Assembly: GCA_045587545.1 (NCBI GenBank) | Contig: JAZNCN010000028.1 | Span: forward strand, 143,425-207,424 | Length of the DNA: 64,000 nucleotides | Reading direction: 5' to 3' | Origin: Candidatus Caccoplasma sp. | GTDB taxonomy: Bacteria > Bacteroidota > Bacteroidia > Bacteroidales > G3-4614 | Shown: positions 36,250-64,000 of the stretch, piece by piece | Layout of the letters: every line of letters begins with the position of its first letter | How positions within the stretch are numbered: the first letter of the stretch is position 1 | Notes under the pieces: generated by a model | What the model saw: only the letters and a program-made list of their open reading frames with translations | What the model was told of the DNA's origin: nothing | The model's database searches: none | Program-made: the position numbers and the translations under genes

Positions 36250-37368
36250 ATGGATTTTTTAAATCTAAATAAAATATCGGAACCATACCGCAAAGAACTT
36301 GTTAAAGCAGCAACAGAAGTTATAAATAGCGGGTGCTACATAAGAGGAGAAAAATGTAAAGAATTTGAAGACCTCTTATGCCGATATTTAGGTTGCAACT
36401 ATGCAGTTGGCACAGGCAATGGATTAGATGCACTGAAACTGATATTCAGAGCCTACATTGAAATGGGAGTAATGACAGAAGGAGACGAGGTGATACTCCC
36501 TGCCAATACATTTATAGCAACAATGATTGCTGTAACAGAAAACAGATTAAAACCTGTAATAGCAGATATAGATGCAACAACACTCAATCTTGACATCAAC
36601 AATATTGAGAAACTAATAACTCCACGAACCAAAGCAATAATCCCCGTACACCTGTACGGGCGATGTTGCTGGAGCAATAAACTCAAAAATATTGCTCAAA
36701 AATACAATCTAAAAATAGTAGAAGACAATGCACAAGCAATGGGAGCTAAAAGCATGGTTTGTGGATTGAAAGAGAGTTATATGTGCGGAGCTTTAGGCGA
36801 TGCTGCCAGTACAAGTTTTTACCCCGTAAAAAACCTTGGTGCATTAGGCGACGGTGGTGCTGTAACTACAAACGATGCCAAATTGGCAGAGGTAGTTAGA
36901 GCATTAAGCAACTATGGGTCAGAAGAAAAATACATACACAAATACGTTGGCATAAATAGCCGATTAGACGAAATTCAGGCAGCAATGCTATGCGTAAAAC
37001 TCAAATATCTTGACCAAGAGAACAGACGCAGAATTGAAATTGCTGAACAATACAACAAAAACATTACTAACAATAAAATAATAAAACCATTATTAGGAGA
37101 GAATGGCGAATATGTATGGCATCAGTATGTTATACGCACAGAAAATCGTAACTATTTGATGCAAAAATTAGAGGAGCAAGGTATTCCAACAATGATACAC
37201 TACCCCACTCCTTTACATAAACACAAAGCCTATAAAGAGTTTAACTCATTATATTTACCTATTGCGGAGAGATGTGCTACTGAAATTCTCAGTTTACCCA
37301 TTAACCCCGCAATGAGTAATAGTGAGGTACTAAAAGTAGCAAAAGCGGTTAATATTAGTTGTAACTAA
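36250..37368 (+). CDS. DegT/DnrJ/EryC1/StrS family sugar aminotransferase
   Basis: 372 aa with [18 protein letters not shown] and [15 protein letters not shown] (PLP lysine region). The stop codon lies inside the heptad array. Confidence 0.85.
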
Positions 37369-37408
37369 CAACTAACAACTAACAACTAACAACTAACAAC
37401 TAACAACT
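37363..37408. repeat. tandem heptanucleotide array (AACTAAC) x6 plus aact
   Basis: Counted directly: units at 37363, 37370, 37377, 37384, 37391 and 37398. Contains TAA or TAG in all six frames. Confidence 0.95.
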
Positions 37409-37418
37409 GATACCTGAC

Positions 37419-38861
37419 ATGGCAGAATCATTAAGAGGAAAAACACTGAAAGGTATGATATGGAGTTTTGCAGAGAATTTTTCTCTGCAAGGTATTCAAT
37501 TTATCATTGGTATTCTGCTTGCTCGCGTTCTTTCTCCATCGGACTACGGTATGGTTGGAATGTTAGCAATATTCACTGCCGTTTCACAAACACTTATTAA
37601 TAGTGGTTTTAGTACTGCTCTTGTCAGGAAAAACGATAGAACTCAAGCAGACCTTTCAACTACCTTCTATTTTAATATAGTTGTCGGTTTTGTATTATAC
37701 TTTGTACTATTTTTCTCAGGTCCATTAATTGCAGACTTTTATAATACCCCACTCCTCTCAGATTTGATAAAAGTTACCGCAATATCTCTGATACTTAACT
37801 CATTATGTATTGTTCAACAAGCCCTCTTTACAATAAAGATGGACTTTAAGACCCAAGCCAAAATTTCAGTTATTGGAGCATTGGTTACGGGTGCTGGAGG
37901 AATAGCAATGGCATATACAGGATTTGGCGTATGGTCTATTGTATGGCCCGGAGTATTTGGCGGAGCAGTAAGATGTATTTTGCTATGGATATGGGGTAAA
38001 TGGCGACCAACATGGGAATATTCTTGGAAATCGTTTAAAGAGTTATTTGGTTTTGGGTCAAAGCTATTGGCATCAGGACTGATTGATACCATATACAACA
38101 ATATATATCCAATTATAATCGGTAAAAAATTCTCTGCTGCTGATTTGGGACAATACACCAGAGCTGACGGATATGCAAACCTTCCAGCAACAACAGTTAC
38201 CGGAGTGTTAGGCAGGGTTACGTTCCCTTTGCTATGTCAAATACAAGATGACGATAATAGGCTACAATCAACATACCGTCAATTAATAAAACTATCGGCA
38301 TACGTTGTATTTCCCATTATGATTGGTCTTGCAGCATTAGCTAAACCGCTAATCATATTTATGATAACAGCAAAGTGGGCTGAATGCGTTCCTTATTTAC
38401 AAATACTATGCTTTAGTTTAATGTGGTACCCTATACACGCATTAAACCTTAATCTATTACAAGTTAAAGGGCGAAGTGACCTGTTTTTAAAACTCGAAAT
38501 AATTAAAAAAATTCTTGGAGTTGCAGTCTTGATTATTGCTATACCTTTTGGAATTATATGGATGTGTGTTGGACGAATATTTACCTCTATAATTTGTTTA
38601 GCAATAAATACATATTATACAGGAAGACTCATTAATGTTGGTTTTTTCAAACAGATGGGAGATTTACTACCTATATTAATCCTTTCATTATCAATGGGAG
38701 CAATAGTTATTGCTGTAAACCTATTTATTAACGGATTGTTATTACAAATAATTATCGGATTAATTACAGGATTAGTCTATTATTTATCAATATCATACAT
38801 AATTAAATCAAAAGAATTGTTATATTTGCTTTCGTTATTGAAAAAGAATAAGAGTTGTTAG
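37419..38861 (+). CDS. wzx: polysaccharide flippase (MOP/Wzx family)
   Basis: 480 aa, about 12-14 TM, with a polysaccharide-biosynthesis-protein-like N-terminus (GMIWSFAENFSLQGIQFIIGILLARVLSPSDYG). Confidence 0.8.
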   Translation: MAESLRGKTLKGMIWSFAENFSLQGIQFIIGILLARVLSPSDYGMVGMLAIFTAVSQTLINSGFSTALVRKNDRTQADLSTTFYFNIVVGFVLYFVLFFSGPLIADFYNTPLLSDLIKVTAISLILNSLCIVQQALFTIKMDFKTQAKISVIGALVTGAGGIAMAYTGFGVWSIVWPGVFGGAVRCILLWIWGKWRPTWEYSWKSFKELFGFGSKLLASGLIDTIYNNIYPIIIGKKFSAADLGQYTRADGYANLPATTVTGVLGRVTFPLLCQIQDDDNRLQSTYRQLIKLSAYVVFPIMIGLAALAKPLIIFMITAKWAECVPYLQILCFSLMWYPIHALNLNLLQVKGRSDLFLKLEIIKKILGVAVLIIAIPFGIIWMCVGRIFTSIICLAINTYYTGRLINVGFFKQMGDLLPILILSLSMGAIVIAVNLFINGLLLQIIIGLITGLVYYLSISYIIKSKELLYLLSLLKKNKSC

Positions 38862-38882
38862 TTGTTGGTTGTTAGTTGTTAG
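38855..38882. repeat. inverted copy of the heptad array: (TTGTTAG) x4, one unit ttgttgg
   Basis: ttgttag ttgttgg ttgttag ttgttag. The first unit contains the wzx stop codon (38859-38861). Confidence 0.9.
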
Positions 38883-38934: not shown

Positions 38935-40476
38935 ATGGATAAAAATAAGACTATAACAGTTACATCTCCCCTATTACCATCATTAGAGGAGTTGATGCCA
39001 TATCTTCAAGATATTTGGGACAGAAAGTGGCTGACTAATAACGGACACTATCATCAGGAGTTAGAGAAGGCTCTTTGCGAATATCTTAAAGTGCCATATA
39101 TAAGTTTGTTTACAAACGGAACACTTCCTTTAATAACTGCACTACAAGCATTGAGAGTGACAGGAGAGGTTATTACAACTCCATATAGTTTTGTGGCAAC
39201 TACACACTCGTTATGGTGGAATGGCATAAAACCTGTTTTTGTTGATATTGATCCTGAAACTTGCAATTTGGATCCTGCTAAAATTGAGGCAGCAATAACC
39301 CCTAAAACCACAGCCATAATGCCTGTTCACTGCTACGGAAAACCTTGTGATGTTAAAGGTATTCAAGAGGTAGCAGATAAATACGGATTGAAAGTTATTT
39401 ACGATGCAGCTCACGCATTTGGGGTGGAAGTTCTCCTCTCCCCTAACCCCTCTCCAGTAGAGAGGGGAATATATGGCTATAACAGAAGAACTGGAAACCC
39501 TGATATTTATGCACTTCTTAAGGGATATGCAATAGACAATAGAAAAAATCCCACAGAGGCAGAAAATATATTATGGCAAGTTCTTCGTAATAATCAATTA
39601 GGAACTAAATGGAGAAGACAACACATGATCCTTGATTTTATTGTAGATTTTGTATGTTTAGAAAAATCATTTATTATTGAAATAGATGGAGGATACCATA
39701 ACAATCCTAAACAAAAAGAAGCAGACAAAATAAGAGATAAGATTTTAGAAGAAAAAGGATTTTATGTTTTGCGTCTAACCAACGAAGAAGTAATTTCAAA
39801 CATTGATGAAACTATTGCTATAATTAAATCACAAATACAAAACCTCCCCCTACTGGGGGGAATGAGGGGGGAGTCCATTCTCAATTTCGGAGATATGAGT
39901 ACTTTGAGTTTCCATGCGACAAAGGTATATAACACTGTTGAAGGTGGTGCATTGATAATGCACGATGAGGAGACAAAAAAACGCATCGACTATCTTAAAA
40001 ACTTTGGATTTGCCGGAGAGACAGAGGTTATTGCTCCCGGTATAAATAGTAAAATGGACGAGATTCGCTCGGCATACGGATTATTGAGTTTAAAGAAAGT
40101 TGATGACTCAATAGCTGCACGAAAAAGAGTAGCCGAGATATATCGCAGTGAGTTACGCAACATACCTGGAATACGCTTTTTTGATGATATGCCGGGAGTT
40201 AAACATAACTACTCATATTTCCCAATTTTTGTTGAGAAAGATTATGGAATGAGTCGCGATGAACTATACTTTAAGATGAAAGCGAATAACGTTCTTGGCA
40301 GACGCTATTTTTATCCATTAATAAGTACATTCTCAACTTATAGAGGATTGGAGTCGTCAGATCCCAAGAACTTACCAATAGCAACACGCATTGCCGATGA
40401 GGTTATTTGCCTACCAATGCACAATGCTTTAAGCGAAAACGATATTCAAAGAGTAATTGATTGTATAAAGAAGTAA
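38935..40476 (+). CDS. DegT-family sugar aminotransferase carrying an internal in-frame DUF559 endonuclease domain
   Basis: N-terminal part ...KVIYDAAHAFGVEV and C-terminal part GESILNFGDMSTLSFHATKVYNTVEGGALI... are aminotransferase sequence. Codons 167-312 are DUF559-like. Confidence 0.85.
   Translation: MDKNKTITVTSPLLPSLEELMPYLQDIWDRKWLTNNGHYHQELEKALCEYLKVPYISLFTNGTLPLITALQALRVTGEVITTPYSFVATTHSLWWNGIKPVFVDIDPETCNLDPAKIEAAITPKTTAIMPVHCYGKPCDVKGIQEVADKYGLKVIYDAAHAFGVEVLLSPNPSPVERGIYGYNRRTGNPDIYALLKGYAIDNRKNPTEAENILWQVLRNNQLGTKWRRQHMILDFIVDFVCLEKSFIIEIDGGYHNNPKQKEADKIRDKILEEKGFYVLRLTNEEVISNIDETIAIIKSQIQNLPLLGGMRGESILNFGDMSTLSFHATKVYNTVEGGALIMHDEETKKRIDYLKNFGFAGETEVIAPGINSKMDEIRSAYGLLSLKKVDDSIAARKRVAEIYRSELRNIPGIRFFDDMPGVKHNYSYFPIFVEKDYGMSRDELYFKMKANNVLGRRYFYPLISTFSTYRGLESSDPKNLPIATRIADEVICLPMHNALSENDIQRVIDCIKK
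39433..39870 (+). mobile_element. DUF559 (Vsr-like PD-(D/E)xK endonuclease) cassette, 438 bp, in frame, with G/C-rich hairpin termini
   Basis: Encodes NPTEAENILWQVLRNNQLGTKWRRQHMILDFIVDFVCLEKSFIIEIDGGYH...VLRLTNEEV. Terminal hairpins cccctct/agagggg (39447-39467) and tccccc/ggggga (39845-39861). The ends are imperfect inverted repeats sharing CCAGTAG. Boundaries are good to within a few bp. Confidence 0.65.
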
Positions 40477-50165: not shown

Positions 50166-50171
50166 TTGTTC

Positions 50172-50213
50172 AAATTAGTCCTATTAGTCTAATTAGTCAA
50201 ATTGGACAAATTA
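50172..50213. repeat. ATTAG-rich ~40-bp module, copy B
   Basis: aaattagtcctattagtctaattagtcaaattggacaaatta, left flank of the four-helix-bundle gene. Confidence 0.85.
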
Positions 50214-50784: not shown

Positions 50785-50826
50785 ATTAGACCAATTAGTC
50801 TAATTAGTCCAATTGGACCAATTAAT
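50785..50826. repeat. ATTAG-rich ~40-bp module, copy C
   Basis: attagaccaattagtctaattagtccaattggaccaattaat, right flank of the four-helix-bundle gene, followed by caactaacaact. Confidence 0.85.
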
Positions 50827-50852: not shown

Positions 50853-52073
50853 GTGAAAACTAATATTCTTAAAAATATAAATACTTGTACTATTATTGCA
50901 TTAATTACTGCACTTGCAGTAGTTAATCAGGCAGTAACATTGCAAACATTTGATTTAGGTAATTTATACTATGCAATATTAATTTTTACTCTTTTTATTA
51001 CATTCTTTCAATCAACTATACGTAAACTTGATATTGGAATGACAATAATATACATAGCTTGTATATTAAGTATATTACTAAATGATATTAGTGCTGTTTA
51101 CAGACCTTGGGAAAGGTTTATATTATTTGTAATTGTAACTTTCACGGCCTCACCCTTTATACAATCTGATTTTTATGATAAATTTAGAGTTAATACTTTT
51201 AAATATATCCAGAATCTATGGATTATAGTTGTAATTCTATCAATTCCTGCATTACTTTTTCGAGAACAAGGCAGAACAGGTTTTGAAGGTTTTACAAGCC
51301 ACTCAATGATAATGTCATCAACAGCAGCAATGGCTATTGTAACTTTATTATATAAGTTGTATGCAAAAAAACTGACAAAAATTATAGCAATCCCTCTGAT
51401 TATTGTAGCTTTTCTTTGTATGCTATTAGCCGGTTCAAGAATTGCATTGACAGCATGTATTGGTGGGACTATATTCTTTTTATTCAGGGTATATCGTAAA
51501 AGAATGGATATATTTATAAGAATTGCAGCAACTATTATTGTTGCTATTGTTATTACATTTCCTTTGTGGGATTCTTATTTGGAAAAAATTGAACAAAAAA
51601 ATTCTGCAATTAACCAACAAACAGGAGAGGTTGACATACTTTCTTCAAGAACTCTTATTTGGGATCAACGTATTAGAGAGTTCAAAGAGAGTCCTTTAGT
51701 TGGTATAGGATTTGGATATGCCCCATATATTACCGCGTATAACGAAAGAACAGGGAAAGCTTCTTTTTTAAAGACAGAAACAGGTGTTGTTGAACCAGGT
51801 TCAGGGTGGTTGGCAATTATGTCAATGACAGGATTGTTAGGGTTGCTTGGCTTCATCTTGCTTTGGGGCAGTTCTTTTAAAAAGTGTATTCAATGTGAGA
51901 AAAAAGATAAATTATGGGGTTCTTATCTTTTTGCCATGCTGATATTTGTATCAATACAAATGATTGCTGAAGGTGGAATATATGCAGCCGGGGGTATTGA
52001 TTGTTTTAGAGTATGGATCTTAATTGGAGCTATACATGGCTCACACTCTATACTAAAAAAATATAATACATAA
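50853..52073 (+). CDS. wzy: O-antigen/capsule repeat-unit polymerase (Wzy / O-antigen ligase-like)
   Basis: 406 aa, about 10 TM, with a large loop and LLAGSRIALTAC (Wzy_C-like). GTG start as given in the ORF track. Confidence 0.7.
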   Translation: MKTNILKNINTCTIIALITALAVVNQAVTLQTFDLGNLYYAILIFTLFITFFQSTIRKLDIGMTIIYIACILSILLNDISAVYRPWERFILFVIVTFTASPFIQSDFYDKFRVNTFKYIQNLWIIVVILSIPALLFREQGRTGFEGFTSHSMIMSSTAAMAIVTLLYKLYAKKLTKIIAIPLIIVAFLCMLLAGSRIALTACIGGTIFFLFRVYRKRMDIFIRIAATIIVAIVITFPLWDSYLEKIEQKNSAINQQTGEVDILSSRTLIWDQRIREFKESPLVGIGFGYAPYITAYNERTGKASFLKTETGVVEPGSGWLAIMSMTGLLGLLGFILLWGSSFKKCIQCEKKDKLWGSYLFAMLIFVSIQMIAEGGIYAAGGIDCFRVWILIGAIHGSHSILKKYNT

Positions 52074-56117: not shown

Positions 56118-56151
56118 TTAGACTAATTAGTCTAATTGGACAAATTAATAG
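56118..56151. repeat. ATTAG-rich module, copy D
   Basis: ttagactaattagtctaattggacaaattaatag. Confidence 0.8.
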
Positions 56152-57322: not shown

Positions 57323-57365
57323 AAATTAGACCAATTAGACTAATTAGTCCAATTTGACAAATTAG
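57323..57365. repeat. ATTAG-rich module, copy E
   Basis: aaattagaccaattagactaattagtccaatttgacaaattag, preceded by further aattag motifs at 57289-57316. Confidence 0.85.
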
Positions 57366-57370
57366 AAGCG

Positions 57371-57416
57371 CAACTAACAACTAACAACTAACAACTAACA
57401 ACTAACAACTAACAAC
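57371..57416. repeat. tandem heptanucleotide array (CAACTAA) x6 plus caac, directly abutting a TTG start
   Basis: Units at 57371, 57378, 57385, 57392, 57399 and 57406. Same sequence and orientation as 37363-37408. Confidence 0.95.
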
Positions 57417-58526
57417 TTGAAGATTCTTGAAACCATAACTGATTTGAATTTGTCGAGCGGAGGGGCTGTTACCTCTACTCTGAATAGTTATGGACTTTTG
57501 AGAGATAGGGGTATTGATATTGATATGGTTACTCTACTGCCCTACTCTGATGATGATGCATATTTGGGAGATAGTTATGATGGTATTAATGCTTTGCCTT
57601 TTGATGGTAAAACTCAATTTGTTTATAGCAAGAATTTGAAAAAATTCTTGGAATCAAATAGAGTTTATGATATTTATCACGCTAATGGTATTTGGACTTA
57701 CCCTACTTATAAAACCATACGAGTTGCAAGAAAAGAGGATAAACCATGTATTGTTACAATTCATGGCATGCTCAATAGAGATGCTCTTAAGATGACATCT
57801 TTTAAGAAACAACTCTTTCTTAAACTTTTTCAAAAACAAGATTTGCAAAGTGTTGCATATATACATGCCACAAGTGAATATGAGGCTGAATGTATAAGAG
57901 AGTTGGGGATTACCACCTCTATTGCTGTTATTCCTAACGGAGTTGTTGATTATGGGAAAAAACACTTAATAAGTAGTGATGGCATTATTCGGTTTGGATT
58001 TGTTGGAAGAACTGACCCTGTAAAAAATATTGATGTACTTCTTTCGGCTTGGCAAAAGCTTGGTAATTACACAAAAAATTGTCAACTAACTATTATTGGT
58101 GGTGGGAACGACCCCGAATATTCAAAAAAATTACATACCTTTGTAAGTGAGCATAATATGAACAATGTTGTGTTTACAGGATTACTCTCAAAAGAGAATG
58201 CATTACAAGAGATGGCAAAATTGGATTATCTGATTTTGCCAAGCCGTTCTGAAAATTTTGGTATGGTTATTCCTGAAGCTTTAAGTATGGGTATTCCTTG
58301 TATTGCATCAAAAGGTACTCCTTGGAATGAGTTAAACACTCACAATTGCGGTTGGTGGATTGATGGTAACGAAAAGAGTTTATGTGGTACTATTAAAAAC
58401 GCATTAAATACTCCAACAGAAGAGTATAATTTAATGGCAACAAATGGTGTTAATTTAGTTAAGGAGAAATACTCTATTGATAAAACTGTTGACGGATTAA
58501 TTAATTTGTATAAAGCTTTAATTTAA
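57417..58526 (+). CDS. glycosyltransferase family 4 (TTG start)
   Basis: SENFGMVIPEALSMGIPCIASKGTPWNELNTHNCGWWI. The N-terminus MKILETITDL aligns with MKVLHTISGL of the paralogue, which supports the TTG at 57417. Confidence 0.8.
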   Translation: MKILETITDLNLSSGGAVTSTLNSYGLLRDRGIDIDMVTLLPYSDDDAYLGDSYDGINALPFDGKTQFVYSKNLKKFLESNRVYDIYHANGIWTYPTYKTIRVARKEDKPCIVTIHGMLNRDALKMTSFKKQLFLKLFQKQDLQSVAYIHATSEYEAECIRELGITTSIAVIPNGVVDYGKKHLISSDGIIRFGFVGRTDPVKNIDVLLSAWQKLGNYTKNCQLTIIGGGNDPEYSKKLHTFVSEHNMNNVVFTGLLSKENALQEMAKLDYLILPSRSENFGMVIPEALSMGIPCIASKGTPWNELNTHNCGWWIDGNEKSLCGTIKNALNTPTEEYNLMATNGVNLVKEKYSIDKTVDGLINLYKALI

Positions 58527-61969: not shown

Positions 61970-62734
61970 ATGAAAGTATCTATAATTACTTGTACATATA
62001 ATAGTGCAGCGACTATTGCTGATACCATTAAATCGGTTAATGCTCAAACTTACCACAATATTGAGCATATTATTGTTGATGGTCTTTCAAAAGATAATAC
62101 TTTAGAGATTGTTAAACAATCAGCAAGTGATAGACAAATTATAAAATCAGAGAAAGACAACGGCATTTACGATGCCTTTAACAAGGGTATCGGAATGGCA
62201 ACAGGAGATATTATTGGCGTGCTTAACTCTGATGATTTTTTTACTTCTGATACTATTATTGAGCAAGTAGTTAATGCTTTTAACAAAGAAAGTATTGATG
62301 CCGTTTATGGTGATATACACTTTGTTAACACGGAGAACTTAAACAAATGCGTTAGATACTATTCCTCAAAAAATTTTAGGCCATATATGATGCGAATGGG
62401 ATTTATGTTTGCCCACCCATCTTTCTACGTTAAACGTGAGCATTATGAGACTTTAGGGTTATATAAAACCGATTATAAGATTGCCGCTGATTTTGAGTTA
62501 CTCCTCCGCTTTGTTGTAAAAGCTAAAATAAACTGCAAATACTTACCATTGGATTTTGTTACTATGCGTACCGGAGGAGCAAGCACAGAGGGTTTCAGAA
62601 GTAAGAATATTATAAACAAAGAGTGCCTAAGAGCTTGCAAAGAAAACAACTATTACTCTAATATACTTTTTATGTGGCTACGCCTTGTTTATAAAGCATT
62701 TGAATTACTTTTGTTTAAGATTAAATCTAAATAG
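61970..62734 (+). CDS. glycosyltransferase family 2
   Basis: VSIITCTYNSAATIADTIKSV...IIVDGLSKDNT...NSDD. Confidence 0.85.
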   Translation: MKVSIITCTYNSAATIADTIKSVNAQTYHNIEHIIVDGLSKDNTLEIVKQSASDRQIIKSEKDNGIYDAFNKGIGMATGDIIGVLNSDDFFTSDTIIEQVVNAFNKESIDAVYGDIHFVNTENLNKCVRYYSSKNFRPYMMRMGFMFAHPSFYVKREHYETLGLYKTDYKIAADFELLLRFVVKAKINCKYLPLDFVTMRTGGASTEGFRSKNIINKECLRACKENNYYSNILFMWLRLVYKAFELLLFKIKSK

Positions 62735-62835
62735 TTTTTTAGTTGTTAGTTGTCAGCTTTGAGATAAAGTTCCCCGTCGCACAGAGCACTGATTTCCTCC
62801 GTCGCATAGGAGTTATGCTCCCCCATACTGCGGTC

Positions 62836-62962
62836 GGATTAACATTCAGTTAATCCTATTTGCTAAAGCAAATACCTTGTATGCCCCATTTTAAGGCACA
62901 AATTGACATTTAGTCAATTTTAATTACATAGTAATTACCTTAAACTACCCCATATGGGGTAG
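62836..62962. repeat. chain of five back-to-back short hairpins
   Basis: 62836-62856 ggattaac/gttaatcc; 62857-62874 tatttgc/gcaaata; 62900-62920 aaattgac/gtcaattt; 62921-62937 taattac/gtaatta; 62945-62962 perfect palindrome ctaccccatatggggtag. Confidence 0.8.
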
Positions 62963-63044
62963 TTGTTAGCAAAAAATTTGTTTAACAAACATGAATATTT
63001 ATTAGTTATTTATTATTAGAGATATAATTTTTTTTGATAATATT

Positions 63045-64000
63045 ATGTATAAACGCAACCAACCAACCAACCAACCAACCAACCAACCAACCAACCAACC
63101 AACCAACCAACCAACCACCACAATTAAATAATAGAGAATCAGGACTTGACATAATAAGAGTTACTGCCATTCTTTTTGTAATTGCAGGGCATTTCTTTTA
63201 TCTGCATACAAACTTTATGGATACTCCTATTACAGATACAAATTTATTTTTTCAAGGAGTTTTAATGTCTCTATTCTATGTATCTGTTCCTCTTTTTGTA
63301 TTGCTGACTGGTTATTTGCATAGGAGGAAAAGATATGATGAAATAAATTTAAAAACATTTAAAGGTATCTGGAAGGTTATAAATCCATACATATTCTATT
63401 CAGTACTATTCGTTTTATTTAAAATATTCTATCTAAATCAAAATTTTTCAGCTTTTCAATACTTGAAATCATTATTAAATTTTACAGCTATACCTTATGG
63501 CTGGTATATTGAACTATATATAGGACTATTTTTATTAATGCCTTTTTTAAATATCCTATTTGAAAAATTAGAGACAAAAAAGAATAGATTATTTTTAATT
63601 GGAATTTGCATATTTAATAGCGCTATTCCCTTATTTGTTAATAGAGGAGGGGTTCAAGTCTTTCCAAATTATTTTGATATAATTGGAGCTATTACATTCT
63701 ATTTCGTTGGTTCGTATATTGCAGAATATAAGCCTAAAATCAAGAAAATATTTTTAGTATTAGGTATCGTTGCTTTATGTTTATCTGATGCAGGAGTCAG
63801 TTTGATATTAAACAAAACCTTTACACCAGTTGGAGGACAGGTTTGGAGTATATATTATTTAGCAATAGCTACTGCTATATTTTTAATTCTATACAACAAA
63901 AAAAGTAATTCTAAAATTCTATCAAAACTTTCTATATATACTTTAGATATATACCTTTGTTGTGGAATGTTTGATATTTTATACTATTCATATTTTAAAA
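63045..64000 (+). CDS. acyltransferase family 3 (O-acyltransferase), 3' end off the window; the ATG is separated from the body by a frame-shifting (AACC)15 tract
   Basis: Not in the ORF track. The body frame (codons in phase with 63127) reads NNRESGLDIIRVTAILFVIAGHFF... and stays open to 64000. The ATG at 63045 reads MYKR(NQPT)x5TTIK* and stops at 63129-63131. Confidence 0.7.
63057..63116 (+). repeat. tetranucleotide simple-sequence repeat (AACC) x15
   Basis: Counted directly: one unit at 63057-63060 plus 14 units at 63061-63116. Confidence 0.95.

Follow-up and report, generated by a model that had tools for sequence, protein, structure and literature searches.

An (AACC)n tract as a probable phase-variation switch of an acyltransferase gene in a Coprobacter-like gut Bacteroidales

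Can a run of tetranucleotide repeats at the 5' end of a coding sequence switch a surface-modifying enzyme on and off in gut Bacteroidales? The question is raised by a 64,000-nucleotide (nt) stretch of Candidatus Caccoplasma sp. (assembly GCA_045587545.1, contig JAZNCN010000028.1, positions 143,425 to 207,424; hereafter the window), in which 15 AACC units separate a start codon from the body of an acyltransferase-3 (AT3) gene. The (AACC)n tract is best read as a hypermutable translational phase-variation switch for this AT3 O-acyltransferase, whose gene ends a Wzx/Wzy-type polysaccharide locus in a Coprobacter-like member of the gut Bacteroidales; the probability of this reading is put at roughly 0.85. 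An initial annotation of the window had proposed slipped-strand phase variation, and the proposal is supported by related contigs in which the number of units is the sole difference between 100% identical flanks.

Under the proposed mechanism, replication slippage would add or remove 4-nt AACC units, and each change would shift the start codon into or out of frame with the catalytic body, whose R-X10-H motif lies just 3' of the tract. The ancestral leader, ATGTATGAGCGC, would supply two ATGs in two frames, leaving two of three phases ON (a start codon in frame with the body) with N-terminal tails of either MYER(NQPT)k or MSA(TNQP)k. The window allele would have lost the second ATG and, at 15 units, would most probably be OFF; the loss of one unit or the gain of two would turn it ON. 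We infer slippage and its rate, reversibility within a population, and an effect on acylation and on recognition by phages and antibodies.

Tract, start codons and reading frames

Direct reading of the forward strand places 15 perfect AACC units immediately 3' of ATG TAT AAA CGC, and Tandem Repeats Finder reports the tract at 63056-63117 (period 4, 15.5 copies, 100% matches, score 124). A repeat scan identified it as the sole tetranucleotide repeat of at least four units within the 64-kb window, and the perfection of the repeat over 60 nt rules out a chance origin. The frame of the ATG at 63045-63047 (ATG1) passes through the tract into ACC ACA ATT AAA and reaches a TAA at 63129-63131, so that translation from this codon at n = 15, n being the number of units, gives MYKR(NQPT)5TTIK and a stop. 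The acyltransferase body, NNRESGLDIIRVTAILFVIAGHFF..., begins at 63127 in the +1 frame relative to ATG1 and remains open through the window end. Fusion of ATG1 to the body requires n mod 3 = 2, for example 14 or 17 units. The gene thus has the anatomy of a contingency gene, with a perfect repeat, of a unit not divisible by three, between start codon and functional domain. Direct reading, translation and frame arithmetic agree here with the initial annotation, which had described the same ATG, unit number and stop and the same need for 14 or 17 units. AACC tetranucleotide tracts are, to our knowledge, not known to act as slippery sites, and transcriptional slippage and programmed frameshifting were set aside on that ground.

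On sequence criteria the gene product is an AT3 membrane O-acyltransferase. The body matches the Pfam profile Acyl_transf_3 (PF01757) with 103.2 bits (E=1.9e-29; cut-off 31) over profile positions 3-297 of 326, and is 96.6% identical at the amino-acid level to a full-length orthologue in the related locus L002, the complete orthologue having 345 amino acids. Orthologues measure 337-347 amino acids and contain PF01757 as their sole domain. The R-X10-H motif of transmembrane helix 1 is present in the window as RVTAILFVIAGH, and its arginine (R20) and histidine (H31) are invariant across an alignment of 15 homologues. This R/K-X10-H motif has been defined in AT3 enzymes and is essential, since the R14A and H25A variants of Salmonella OafA retain <1% activity (PMC7448272). 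The first methionine in the body frame, at 63217, sits 3' of the motif, so internal restart would yield an enzyme without it; the initial annotation was therefore right that internal re-initiation would leave a truncated enzyme. As judged from its place in the locus, the enzyme putatively acylates a surface polysaccharide.

ATG1 is taken as the native start because orthologues with two units read in frame from the same ATG. It is in frame with the body in L002, L003 and L109 (n = 2) and in L108, and the orthologues begin MY[ED]RNQPQLNNRESGLD from the ATG1 position with only two units. Of the homologues, the closest (87-91% identical) have the N-termini MYERNQPQLNNRESGLD and MYDHNQPQLNNRESGLD. 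Among the related proteins, P0001 starts MYERNQPQL... and P0002 starts MYDHNQPQLNNRESGLD; their DNA reads ATGTATGAACGC(AACC)2ACAATT and ATGTATGATCAC(AACC)2ACAATT, a window-like leader in frame with the body. Immediately 5' of the ATG, ~35 nt show almost no variation across the eight aligned loci. Most relatives have ATGTATGAGCGC as their leader, and this contains a second ATG (ATG2), 4 nt 3' of the first and in another frame. ATG2 is the called start in L004 (MSATNSINNRESGLD), L088, L090 and L105, as well as in a tract-less AT3 gene (L001:1498).

For the gene type of the window, ATG1 is in frame at n mod 3 = 2 and ATG2 at n mod 3 = 0; two ATGs in two frames therefore leave two of the three phases ON in the leader of the relatives. 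The window allele, at n = 15, is probably OFF, and it is so because its ATG2 has mutated to ATA, the ATG2 position itself being in frame with the body. The earlier statement that the gene is currently OFF accordingly stands as far as ATG1 is concerned, but depends on the lost ATG2, without which 15 units would be an ON phase.

Alternatively, the tract may be hypervariable while the window allele is ON through the TTG at 63034 or the ATA at 63049, its product being LIILCINA(TNQP)5PQLNN... and tract length gating a non-ATG start. The body frame, traced 5'-ward, is open from 63028 and includes that TTG, which is preceded by a TAA at 63025-63027, and 15 units put the gene in just the phase in which a start at the ATG2 position would be ON. 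A TTG also appears to be used in this genome at 57417, as the initial annotation had remarked when it raised the TTG at 63034 as a possible weak start; relatives have GTG at 57417. Its caveat holds in that the frame is open, but is weakened by the comparison with relatives: most of those with the same leader read TTTTTAAAG and lack the TTG, and in L002 and L003, which possess it, the TTG frame runs into a TAA stop after the two-unit tract. ATG1, which orthologues use, lies 11 nt 3' of the TTG and would compete with it, and ATA is no recognised efficient start codon. An ON state through a non-ATG codon is thus unlikely, though far from negligible. The features of the switch gene and its upstream region are collected in Table 1.

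Table 1. Coordinates of the switch gene and its upstream region in the window.
Feature	Positions	Strand	Basis
Family-2 glycosyltransferase, anchor for related loci	61970..62734	+	Pfam PF00535, E=5e-29
Variable intergenic spacer	62735..63000	+	Hairpin and palindrome; longer than in relatives
Conserved leader TTATTAGTTATTTATTATTAGAGATATAATTTTTTTTGATAATATT directly 5' of the start codon	63001..63044	+	Alignment; common to all alleles whatever the body
Body-frame TTG; possible alternative start, unsupported	63034..63036	+	Frame scan; not conserved
ATG1, native start	63045..63047	+	Frame differs from that of the body at 15 units; in frame in orthologues
Short 28-codon frame from ATG1	63045..63131	+	Present out-of-frame phase, stop TAA 63129-63131
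ATA at the ATG2 position of relatives	63049..63051	+	G to A; in frame with the body at n = 15
(AACC)15, putative hypermutable frame-setting tract	63057..63116	+	Direct read, Tandem Repeats Finder, repeat scan
AT3 O-acyltransferase body, cut by the window end	63127..64000	+	Pfam E=1.9e-29; identity to the L002 orthologue
R-X10-H motif, helix 1	63157..63192 (R 63157-63159, H 63190-63192)	+	R20/H31 invariant in alignment
First in-frame Met 3' of the tract	63217..63219	+	3' of R-X10-H; used by the gene caller for P0004

Copy-number variation and an apparently portable leader

Related loci (L086-L107) were reached through members of the 90% cluster of the upstream glycosyltransferase, a retrieval that involves no selection for the state of the acyltransferase. 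Unit counts in loci other than the window are 1, 2, ~4 (interrupted), at least 7, 8, 10, 17 and at least 27. The tract has 10 units in L086 and L087 and 8 in L088, with flanks that are 100% identical (912 nt upstream and 600 nt downstream); likewise, L090 and L091 have 17 units and L089 at least 27, interrupted by a scaffold gap, between flanks that are again 100% identical (912 and 542 nt). Because the flanks are identical, the tract is the sole variable site in ~1.5 kb. The window, with 15 units, and L002, with 2, likewise differ in unit number, though they are 99.5% identical over 597 nt downstream. Eight units are found in L105, and the contig of L106 ends inside the tract after seven. The length polymorphism in 4-nt steps across strains that the initial annotation had proposed to look for is thus present (8 versus 10 units; 17 versus at least 27).

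Copy number is therefore polymorphic between close relatives with otherwise identical flanks, and both in-frame (L002, L003, L109 and L108) and out-of-frame alleles (the window, as read from ATG1) occur in nature. Frame shifts among the loci with a type-B body, described below, are matched by a change of start: the gene call begins at ATG1 in the allele with n = 10 and at ATG2 in those with n = 8 and n = 17. Every short or interrupted tract keeps the frame (L004, L108, L002, L003 and L109), including that of the L108 homologue, which is 74% identical and has the interrupted tract ACCAACCAACCAGCCAACC. The strains represented by L096-L104 are without the acyltransferase gene altogether.

Long tracts are a difficulty for assembly. 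Locus L001, which encodes P0004, reads ATGTATGAGCGC(AACC)13, a 100-N scaffold gap, (AACC)14 and then the body, amounting to at least 27 units, a length that the assembler was unable to span. With the tract unresolved, P0004 was called from an internal methionine (MDTPITD) that corresponds to the one at 63217 in the window. Assembly gaps or contig ends fall at the tract in L001, L089 and L106, which is only suggestive of length change within a population. The same observation, together with the origin of the window from a metagenome-assembled genome (MAG), leaves some room for the view that 15 is an assembly miscount, that the true majority allele has 14 or 17 units and is ON, and that OFF is an artefact of the MAG consensus. 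However, ordinary short reads can span a tract of 60 nt, several other assemblies consistently resolve 8-17 units, and independent samples agree with one another (L086 with L087, L090 with L091). A miscount is improbable, and would alter the called state of the window allele rather than the nature of the switch.

An exact look-up of the window's own glycosyltransferase matched no indexed contig, and scans of metagenome contigs with the downstream flank CCACAATTAAATAATAGRGAATC and the leader TTATGTATRARCGCAACCAACC gave no match, a result that is uninformative on abundance; contigs L086-L088, from JGI, carry the exact leader that the metagenome contig scan missed. Among the genomes scanned for the family survey below, one for each species, none has a close orthologue of the window gene; the best match is 57% identical, which implies that the representative genome of the window's own species is without the gene.

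The leader and (AACC)n tract together behave as a module. The same combination is found fused to three or more AT3 bodies that are unrelated to one another, designated A (the window), B1/B2 (RLEYIDA[ML]RGF...) and C (no tract). Similarity between body types in BLASTP comparisons is slight or absent: the best match has E=5e-4 (32% identity over 79 amino acids, A versus B1), and the other pairs have E >= 0.17. Between the window and the type-B loci, identity is 86-91% over the upstream ~900 nt; homology ends at the tract, and there is none downstream.

Two further arrangements concern this module. At L001 1494-2655, a second and unrelated AT3 gene has the same leader, ATGTATGAGCGCAAC, and no tract; its ATG1 frame stops after five codons (MYERN and a stop), and ATG2 serves as the start of the gene (MSATDKQSYYNH...). 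This gene may represent a 'locked' or ancestral form of the module. Module-less AT3 paralogues resembling type B occur at L089 4540-4600, starting ...AACAACCAAAGACTTGAGTATATTGATGC, and at L004 4180-4230, starting ...AGCAACCAAAGGCTTGAGTACATTGATGC. The Asn-Gln codons AACCAA just before RLEYIDA in these paralogues may be the proto-repeat source of (AACC)n.

Repeats across the acyltransferase family and known switches

One genome per species was scanned with an alignment of the family, yielding 80 loci. In the 130 nt that precede the conserved GLD codons, these loci contain 24 repeats, compared with 0.89 expected from the density in the remaining 489 kb (Poisson P=3.8e-26); repeat density at the 5' position of the family is ~27x background. 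Twenty of the 24 are poly-G or poly-C runs of 8-10 nt, located 29-76 nt before the GLD motif, and the remaining four comprise one (GA)17 and three short, weak repeats. In all, 21 of the 80 species representatives have poly-G/C (8-10 nt) or (GA)17 at the 5' position of the homologue. Among the hosts are Bacteroides salyersiae DSM 18765, further Bacteroides, Prevotellaceae, Muribaculaceae, Alistipes, Porphyromonadaceae and one Akkermansia MAG (L071), in which a C9 run lies at the 5' end of the homologue.

As assembled, 7 of these repeat-bearing homologues are in frame (ON) and 14 out of frame (OFF), an ON share close to the one-third expected for random phase; L071, counted among the seven, reads OFF under a stricter frame check. 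For 12 of the 14 OFF alleles, a change of +/-1 nt would bring an upstream ATG into frame with the body, and several of the loci have ATGs in two frames. Among the 120 listed homologues, N-termini vary by G/GG/GGG/GGGG or PP/PPP at the repeat site, as in-frame length variants would be expected to look. The initial annotation had considered a repeat switch unusual for Bacteroidales. That remains fair with regard to the literature searched, in which no prior report was found, but not with regard to the genomes, given 5' repeats in 21 of 80 species representatives.

Other features of these homologues were also recorded. The cultured type strain B. salyersiae DSM 18765 has a G9 run at the 5' end of its homologue (L009 2994-3002, NZ_KB905467.1); the run is out of frame in the reference assembly, a change of +/-1 restores the frame, and ATGs are present in two frames. 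Two related proteins, P0016 and P0018, are named 'acyltransferase, partial' by NCBI. Poly-G runs of 8-9 nt also recur in distant taxa at other fixed positions relative to the GLD codons, within the AT3 homologues or shortly after their end: at ~+605 nt in Akkermansia, Desulfovibrionaceae and Methanomethylophilaceae MAGs (L034 3614-3622, L039 785-792 and L069 3619-3627), at +90 in two Prevotella (L041 3091-3099 and L043 3091-3098), and near the 3' end at ~+990 in two further loci (L007 4034-4042 and L070 3996-4003). Judged by position, these runs may be further frame-shifting sites.

The tract might instead be a neutral, low-complexity coding repeat at the N-terminus, or the gene a decaying pseudogene, in either case with no regulatory role. 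The tetrapeptide tail does seem dispensable, as orthologues have one or two units, and neutral expansion is conceivable. A neutral repeat, however, should change in multiples of three units, whereas the alleles found (8, 10 and 17; 2 and 15) shift the frame, and a second ATG compensates. An intact body, with 96.6% identity to full-length orthologues, speaks against a pseudogene. Independent repeat types (G8-10, C8-10 and (GA)17) occupy the same position in 21 of 80 species, and the module is retained before unrelated AT3 bodies. Neutrality or decay is thus very improbable.

Several points nevertheless weigh against the reading of the tract as a phase-variation switch, or against the state assigned to the window allele. 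All variation in unit number is between samples or assemblies rather than within one population. All six resolved type-B alleles are ON, which fits the two-thirds expectation and provides no OFF state for a type-B body, and the type-A alleles were retrieved through called proteins, biasing that sample towards ON. The window is a MAG consensus, so the count of 15 might be one unit off, and its expression state is made ambiguous by the body frame that is open to the TTG, in a genome that seems to use non-ATG starts (the GT4 gene at 57417 has TTG here and GTG in relatives). No promoter was found, a sigma-70 scan of the upstream region being at background. In the family survey, poly-G lengths in short-read MAGs carry some error.

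The mechanism proposed for the (AACC)n switch is a classical one, that of a contingency locus; what is new is the host group and how common such repeats are in the family, and a further point of interest is the dual-ATG module, portable as it seems. In the literature searched, the coverage of which was incomplete, no report of repeat-mediated phase variation in Bacteroidales was found. A 2025 review covers only invertase-based variation in Bacteroides (PMC11868660), and a C run in an acetyltransferase of B. fragilis was the subject of speculation in 2010 (PMC3090145).

Among the nearest known systems are those of Haemophilus influenzae, where the genes compared are hgp, a putative glycosyltransferase and licA/lic2A (CAAT). 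In lic1, start codons reportedly occur in two or more frames 5' of the repeat, with graded or ON states in two phases (Weiser et al. 1989). In hgp genes and the putative glycosyltransferase, 5'-CCAA tracts of 4-39 units across strains lie just after the start codons (PMC2651432). The window gene shares with hgp the unit (CCAA being a rotation of AACC), comparable copy numbers, interrupted tracts in some alleles, and a tract just 3' of the start that encodes a hydrophilic N-terminal tetrapeptide repeat. Unlike hgp, it belongs to Bacteroidota rather than Pseudomonadota, the target genes are others, and a single module, with a proposed switching role, stands before several unrelated acyltransferase bodies. 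The H. influenzae gene oafA encodes an AT3 O-acetyltransferase of lipooligosaccharide, and ON/OFF switching of surface-glycan O-acetylation through its GCAA repeat is documented and selected in infection (PMC9558356; also PMC6479036 and PMC3938747). It has in common with the window gene the AT3 family and a tetranucleotide repeat within the reading frame, but its repeat is mid-gene (PMC2651432), its unit is GCAA and it has no dual-ATG leader.

The neuO product of Escherichia coli K1 is a soluble hexapeptide-repeat acetyltransferase, its gene is prophage-borne and its unit is 7 nt, in all of which it differs from the AT3 membrane enzyme of the window. The likeness lies in repeat-driven on/off control, in that case of capsule O-acetylation, which is switched by heptanucleotide repeats (cited in PMC3090145), K1 form variation being the subject of PMC2184817. 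Intragenic poly-G tracts gate capsule and lipooligosaccharide modification genes in Campylobacter jejuni (PMC8437040). They resemble the 8-10 nt poly-G/C runs at homologue 5' ends in 20 Bacteroidales and Akkermansia species loci, whereas the window gene has a tetranucleotide in place of a homopolymer, and the phylum is another. In Akkermansia muciniphila, the acyltransferase gene amuc_2098 in cps1 contains long mononucleotide repeats, for which slip-strand mispairing has been suggested (PMC13343947). This is likewise a repeat-bearing acyltransferase in a capsule locus of a gut commensal, and the C9 run of L071 is from an Akkermansia MAG; unlike in the window gene, the amuc_2098 repeat is at the gene end, the protein is larger and different, and slippage is only suggested.

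In gut Bacteroidales, susceptibility to phages, recognition by antibodies (IgA) and colonisation are all shaped by variation of the capsule, which has been explained almost wholly by invertible promoters. It is an even question whether gut Bacteroidales and some Akkermansia possess a widespread and as yet unrecognised second tier of capsule variation, in which 5' repeats of AT3 genes stochastically switch fine-structure acylation beneath the invertible promoters, these selecting the polysaccharide to be produced, with a portable cassette in Coprobacter-like bacteria. If so, about one species representative in four would bear poly-G/C tracts, one MAG (GA)n and the Coprobacter-like lineage (AACC)n. 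The conserved leader, a pair of ATGs in different frames and the tract would together make up the cassette; it would pass between acyltransferase genes that are unrelated, and would have the tract itself as the mark of its recombination boundary. An O-acylation switch would provide a cheaper, finer layer of variation, changing epitopes while the polysaccharide backbone stays the same. It would be missed by inverton-finding software and masked by gene callers that label OFF alleles 'partial', and truncated AT3 calls in such genomes may be phase-OFF genes rather than pseudogenes. The survey suggests that the repeat layer is common and hence testable in cultured strains such as B. salyersiae DSM 18765.

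The polysaccharide locus and its spacers

The switch gene stands last in a polysaccharide locus of ~28 kb. A flippase of the Wzx type (37419-38861) and a Wzy-like polymerase (50853-52073) are encoded there, together with aminotransferases, glycosyltransferases of families GT4 and GT2, a hexapeptide acetyltransferase, a polysaccharide deacetylase and a further AT3 protein. Some members of the 90% clusters to which neighbouring genes belong are named Coprobacter sp.

A final alternative is that an invertible promoter governs the gene and the repeat is incidental. The mechanism is documented in Bacteroides (PMC11868660) and shares with the present case both the target, capsular polysaccharide heterogeneity, and the bacterial group. 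There, however, site-specific inversion acts for a whole locus, whereas here a single modification gene would be frame-shifted, and no inverton signature is apparent. A search for inverton-type repeats upstream of the gene gave only weak AT-rich pairs, the best being a 21-nt pair of 81% complementarity, one arm of which falls within the coding sequence of the glycosyltransferase. In the absence of convincing inverted repeats flanking the upstream region, inverton control of the gene was rejected and is hardly credible; an inverton upstream of the whole locus could exist, but it would add to the tract rather than replace it.

The spacer between the glycosyltransferase and the switch gene is ~190 nt longer than in L002. 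It contains a terminator-like hairpin at 62836-62856 (GGATTAAC...GTTAATCC, then a T-rich tail) and a perfect 22-nt palindrome, AACTACCCCATATGGGGTAGTT, at 62943-62964. The Bacteroidetes -7 motif TAnnTTTG has no match on the + strand of this intergenic region, and an Rfam search of 62500-63300 returned chance-level matches only.

Heptanucleotide arrays are found elsewhere in the locus as intergenic direct repeats oriented towards the next gene, and every frame of the forward unit has a TAA. (AACTAAC)6.6 at 37363-37408 ends 11 nt before the ATG of the Wzx flippase gene (37419), and (CAACTAA)6.7 at 57371-57417 reaches into the TTG start of the GT4 gene. In reverse orientation, (AGTTGTT)4.3 at 38853-38882 and (TTAGTTG)2 at 62739-62753 follow stop codons. 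Six related contigs (L110-L115) have just 2.6 units in the array before the GT4 gene, with GTG as the start, compared with 6.7 units in the window; the copy number of the heptamer is therefore polymorphic. Comparable TAACTGA arrays just 5' of start codons have been described in Beggiatoaceae, cyanobacteria and a few Bacteroidetes, and their function is unknown (PMC4679880).

Arrays with 9-nt units (AATTAGACC, AATTAGTCC and TTAGACTAA; 3-5 copies, 76-81% matches) occupy four spacers of the locus, at 50171-50213, 50785-50824, 56118-56147 and 57323-57366, the last directly upstream of a heptamer array. Finally, the gene at 38935-40476 encodes a 513-amino-acid DegT/DnrJ/EryC1 aminotransferase that is matched in two stretches, with the endonuclease-like domain DUF559 (E=6e-29) inserted at residues 198-301. 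From its sequence, this looks like a domain insertion into a sugar aminotransferase or the remnant of a mobile element.

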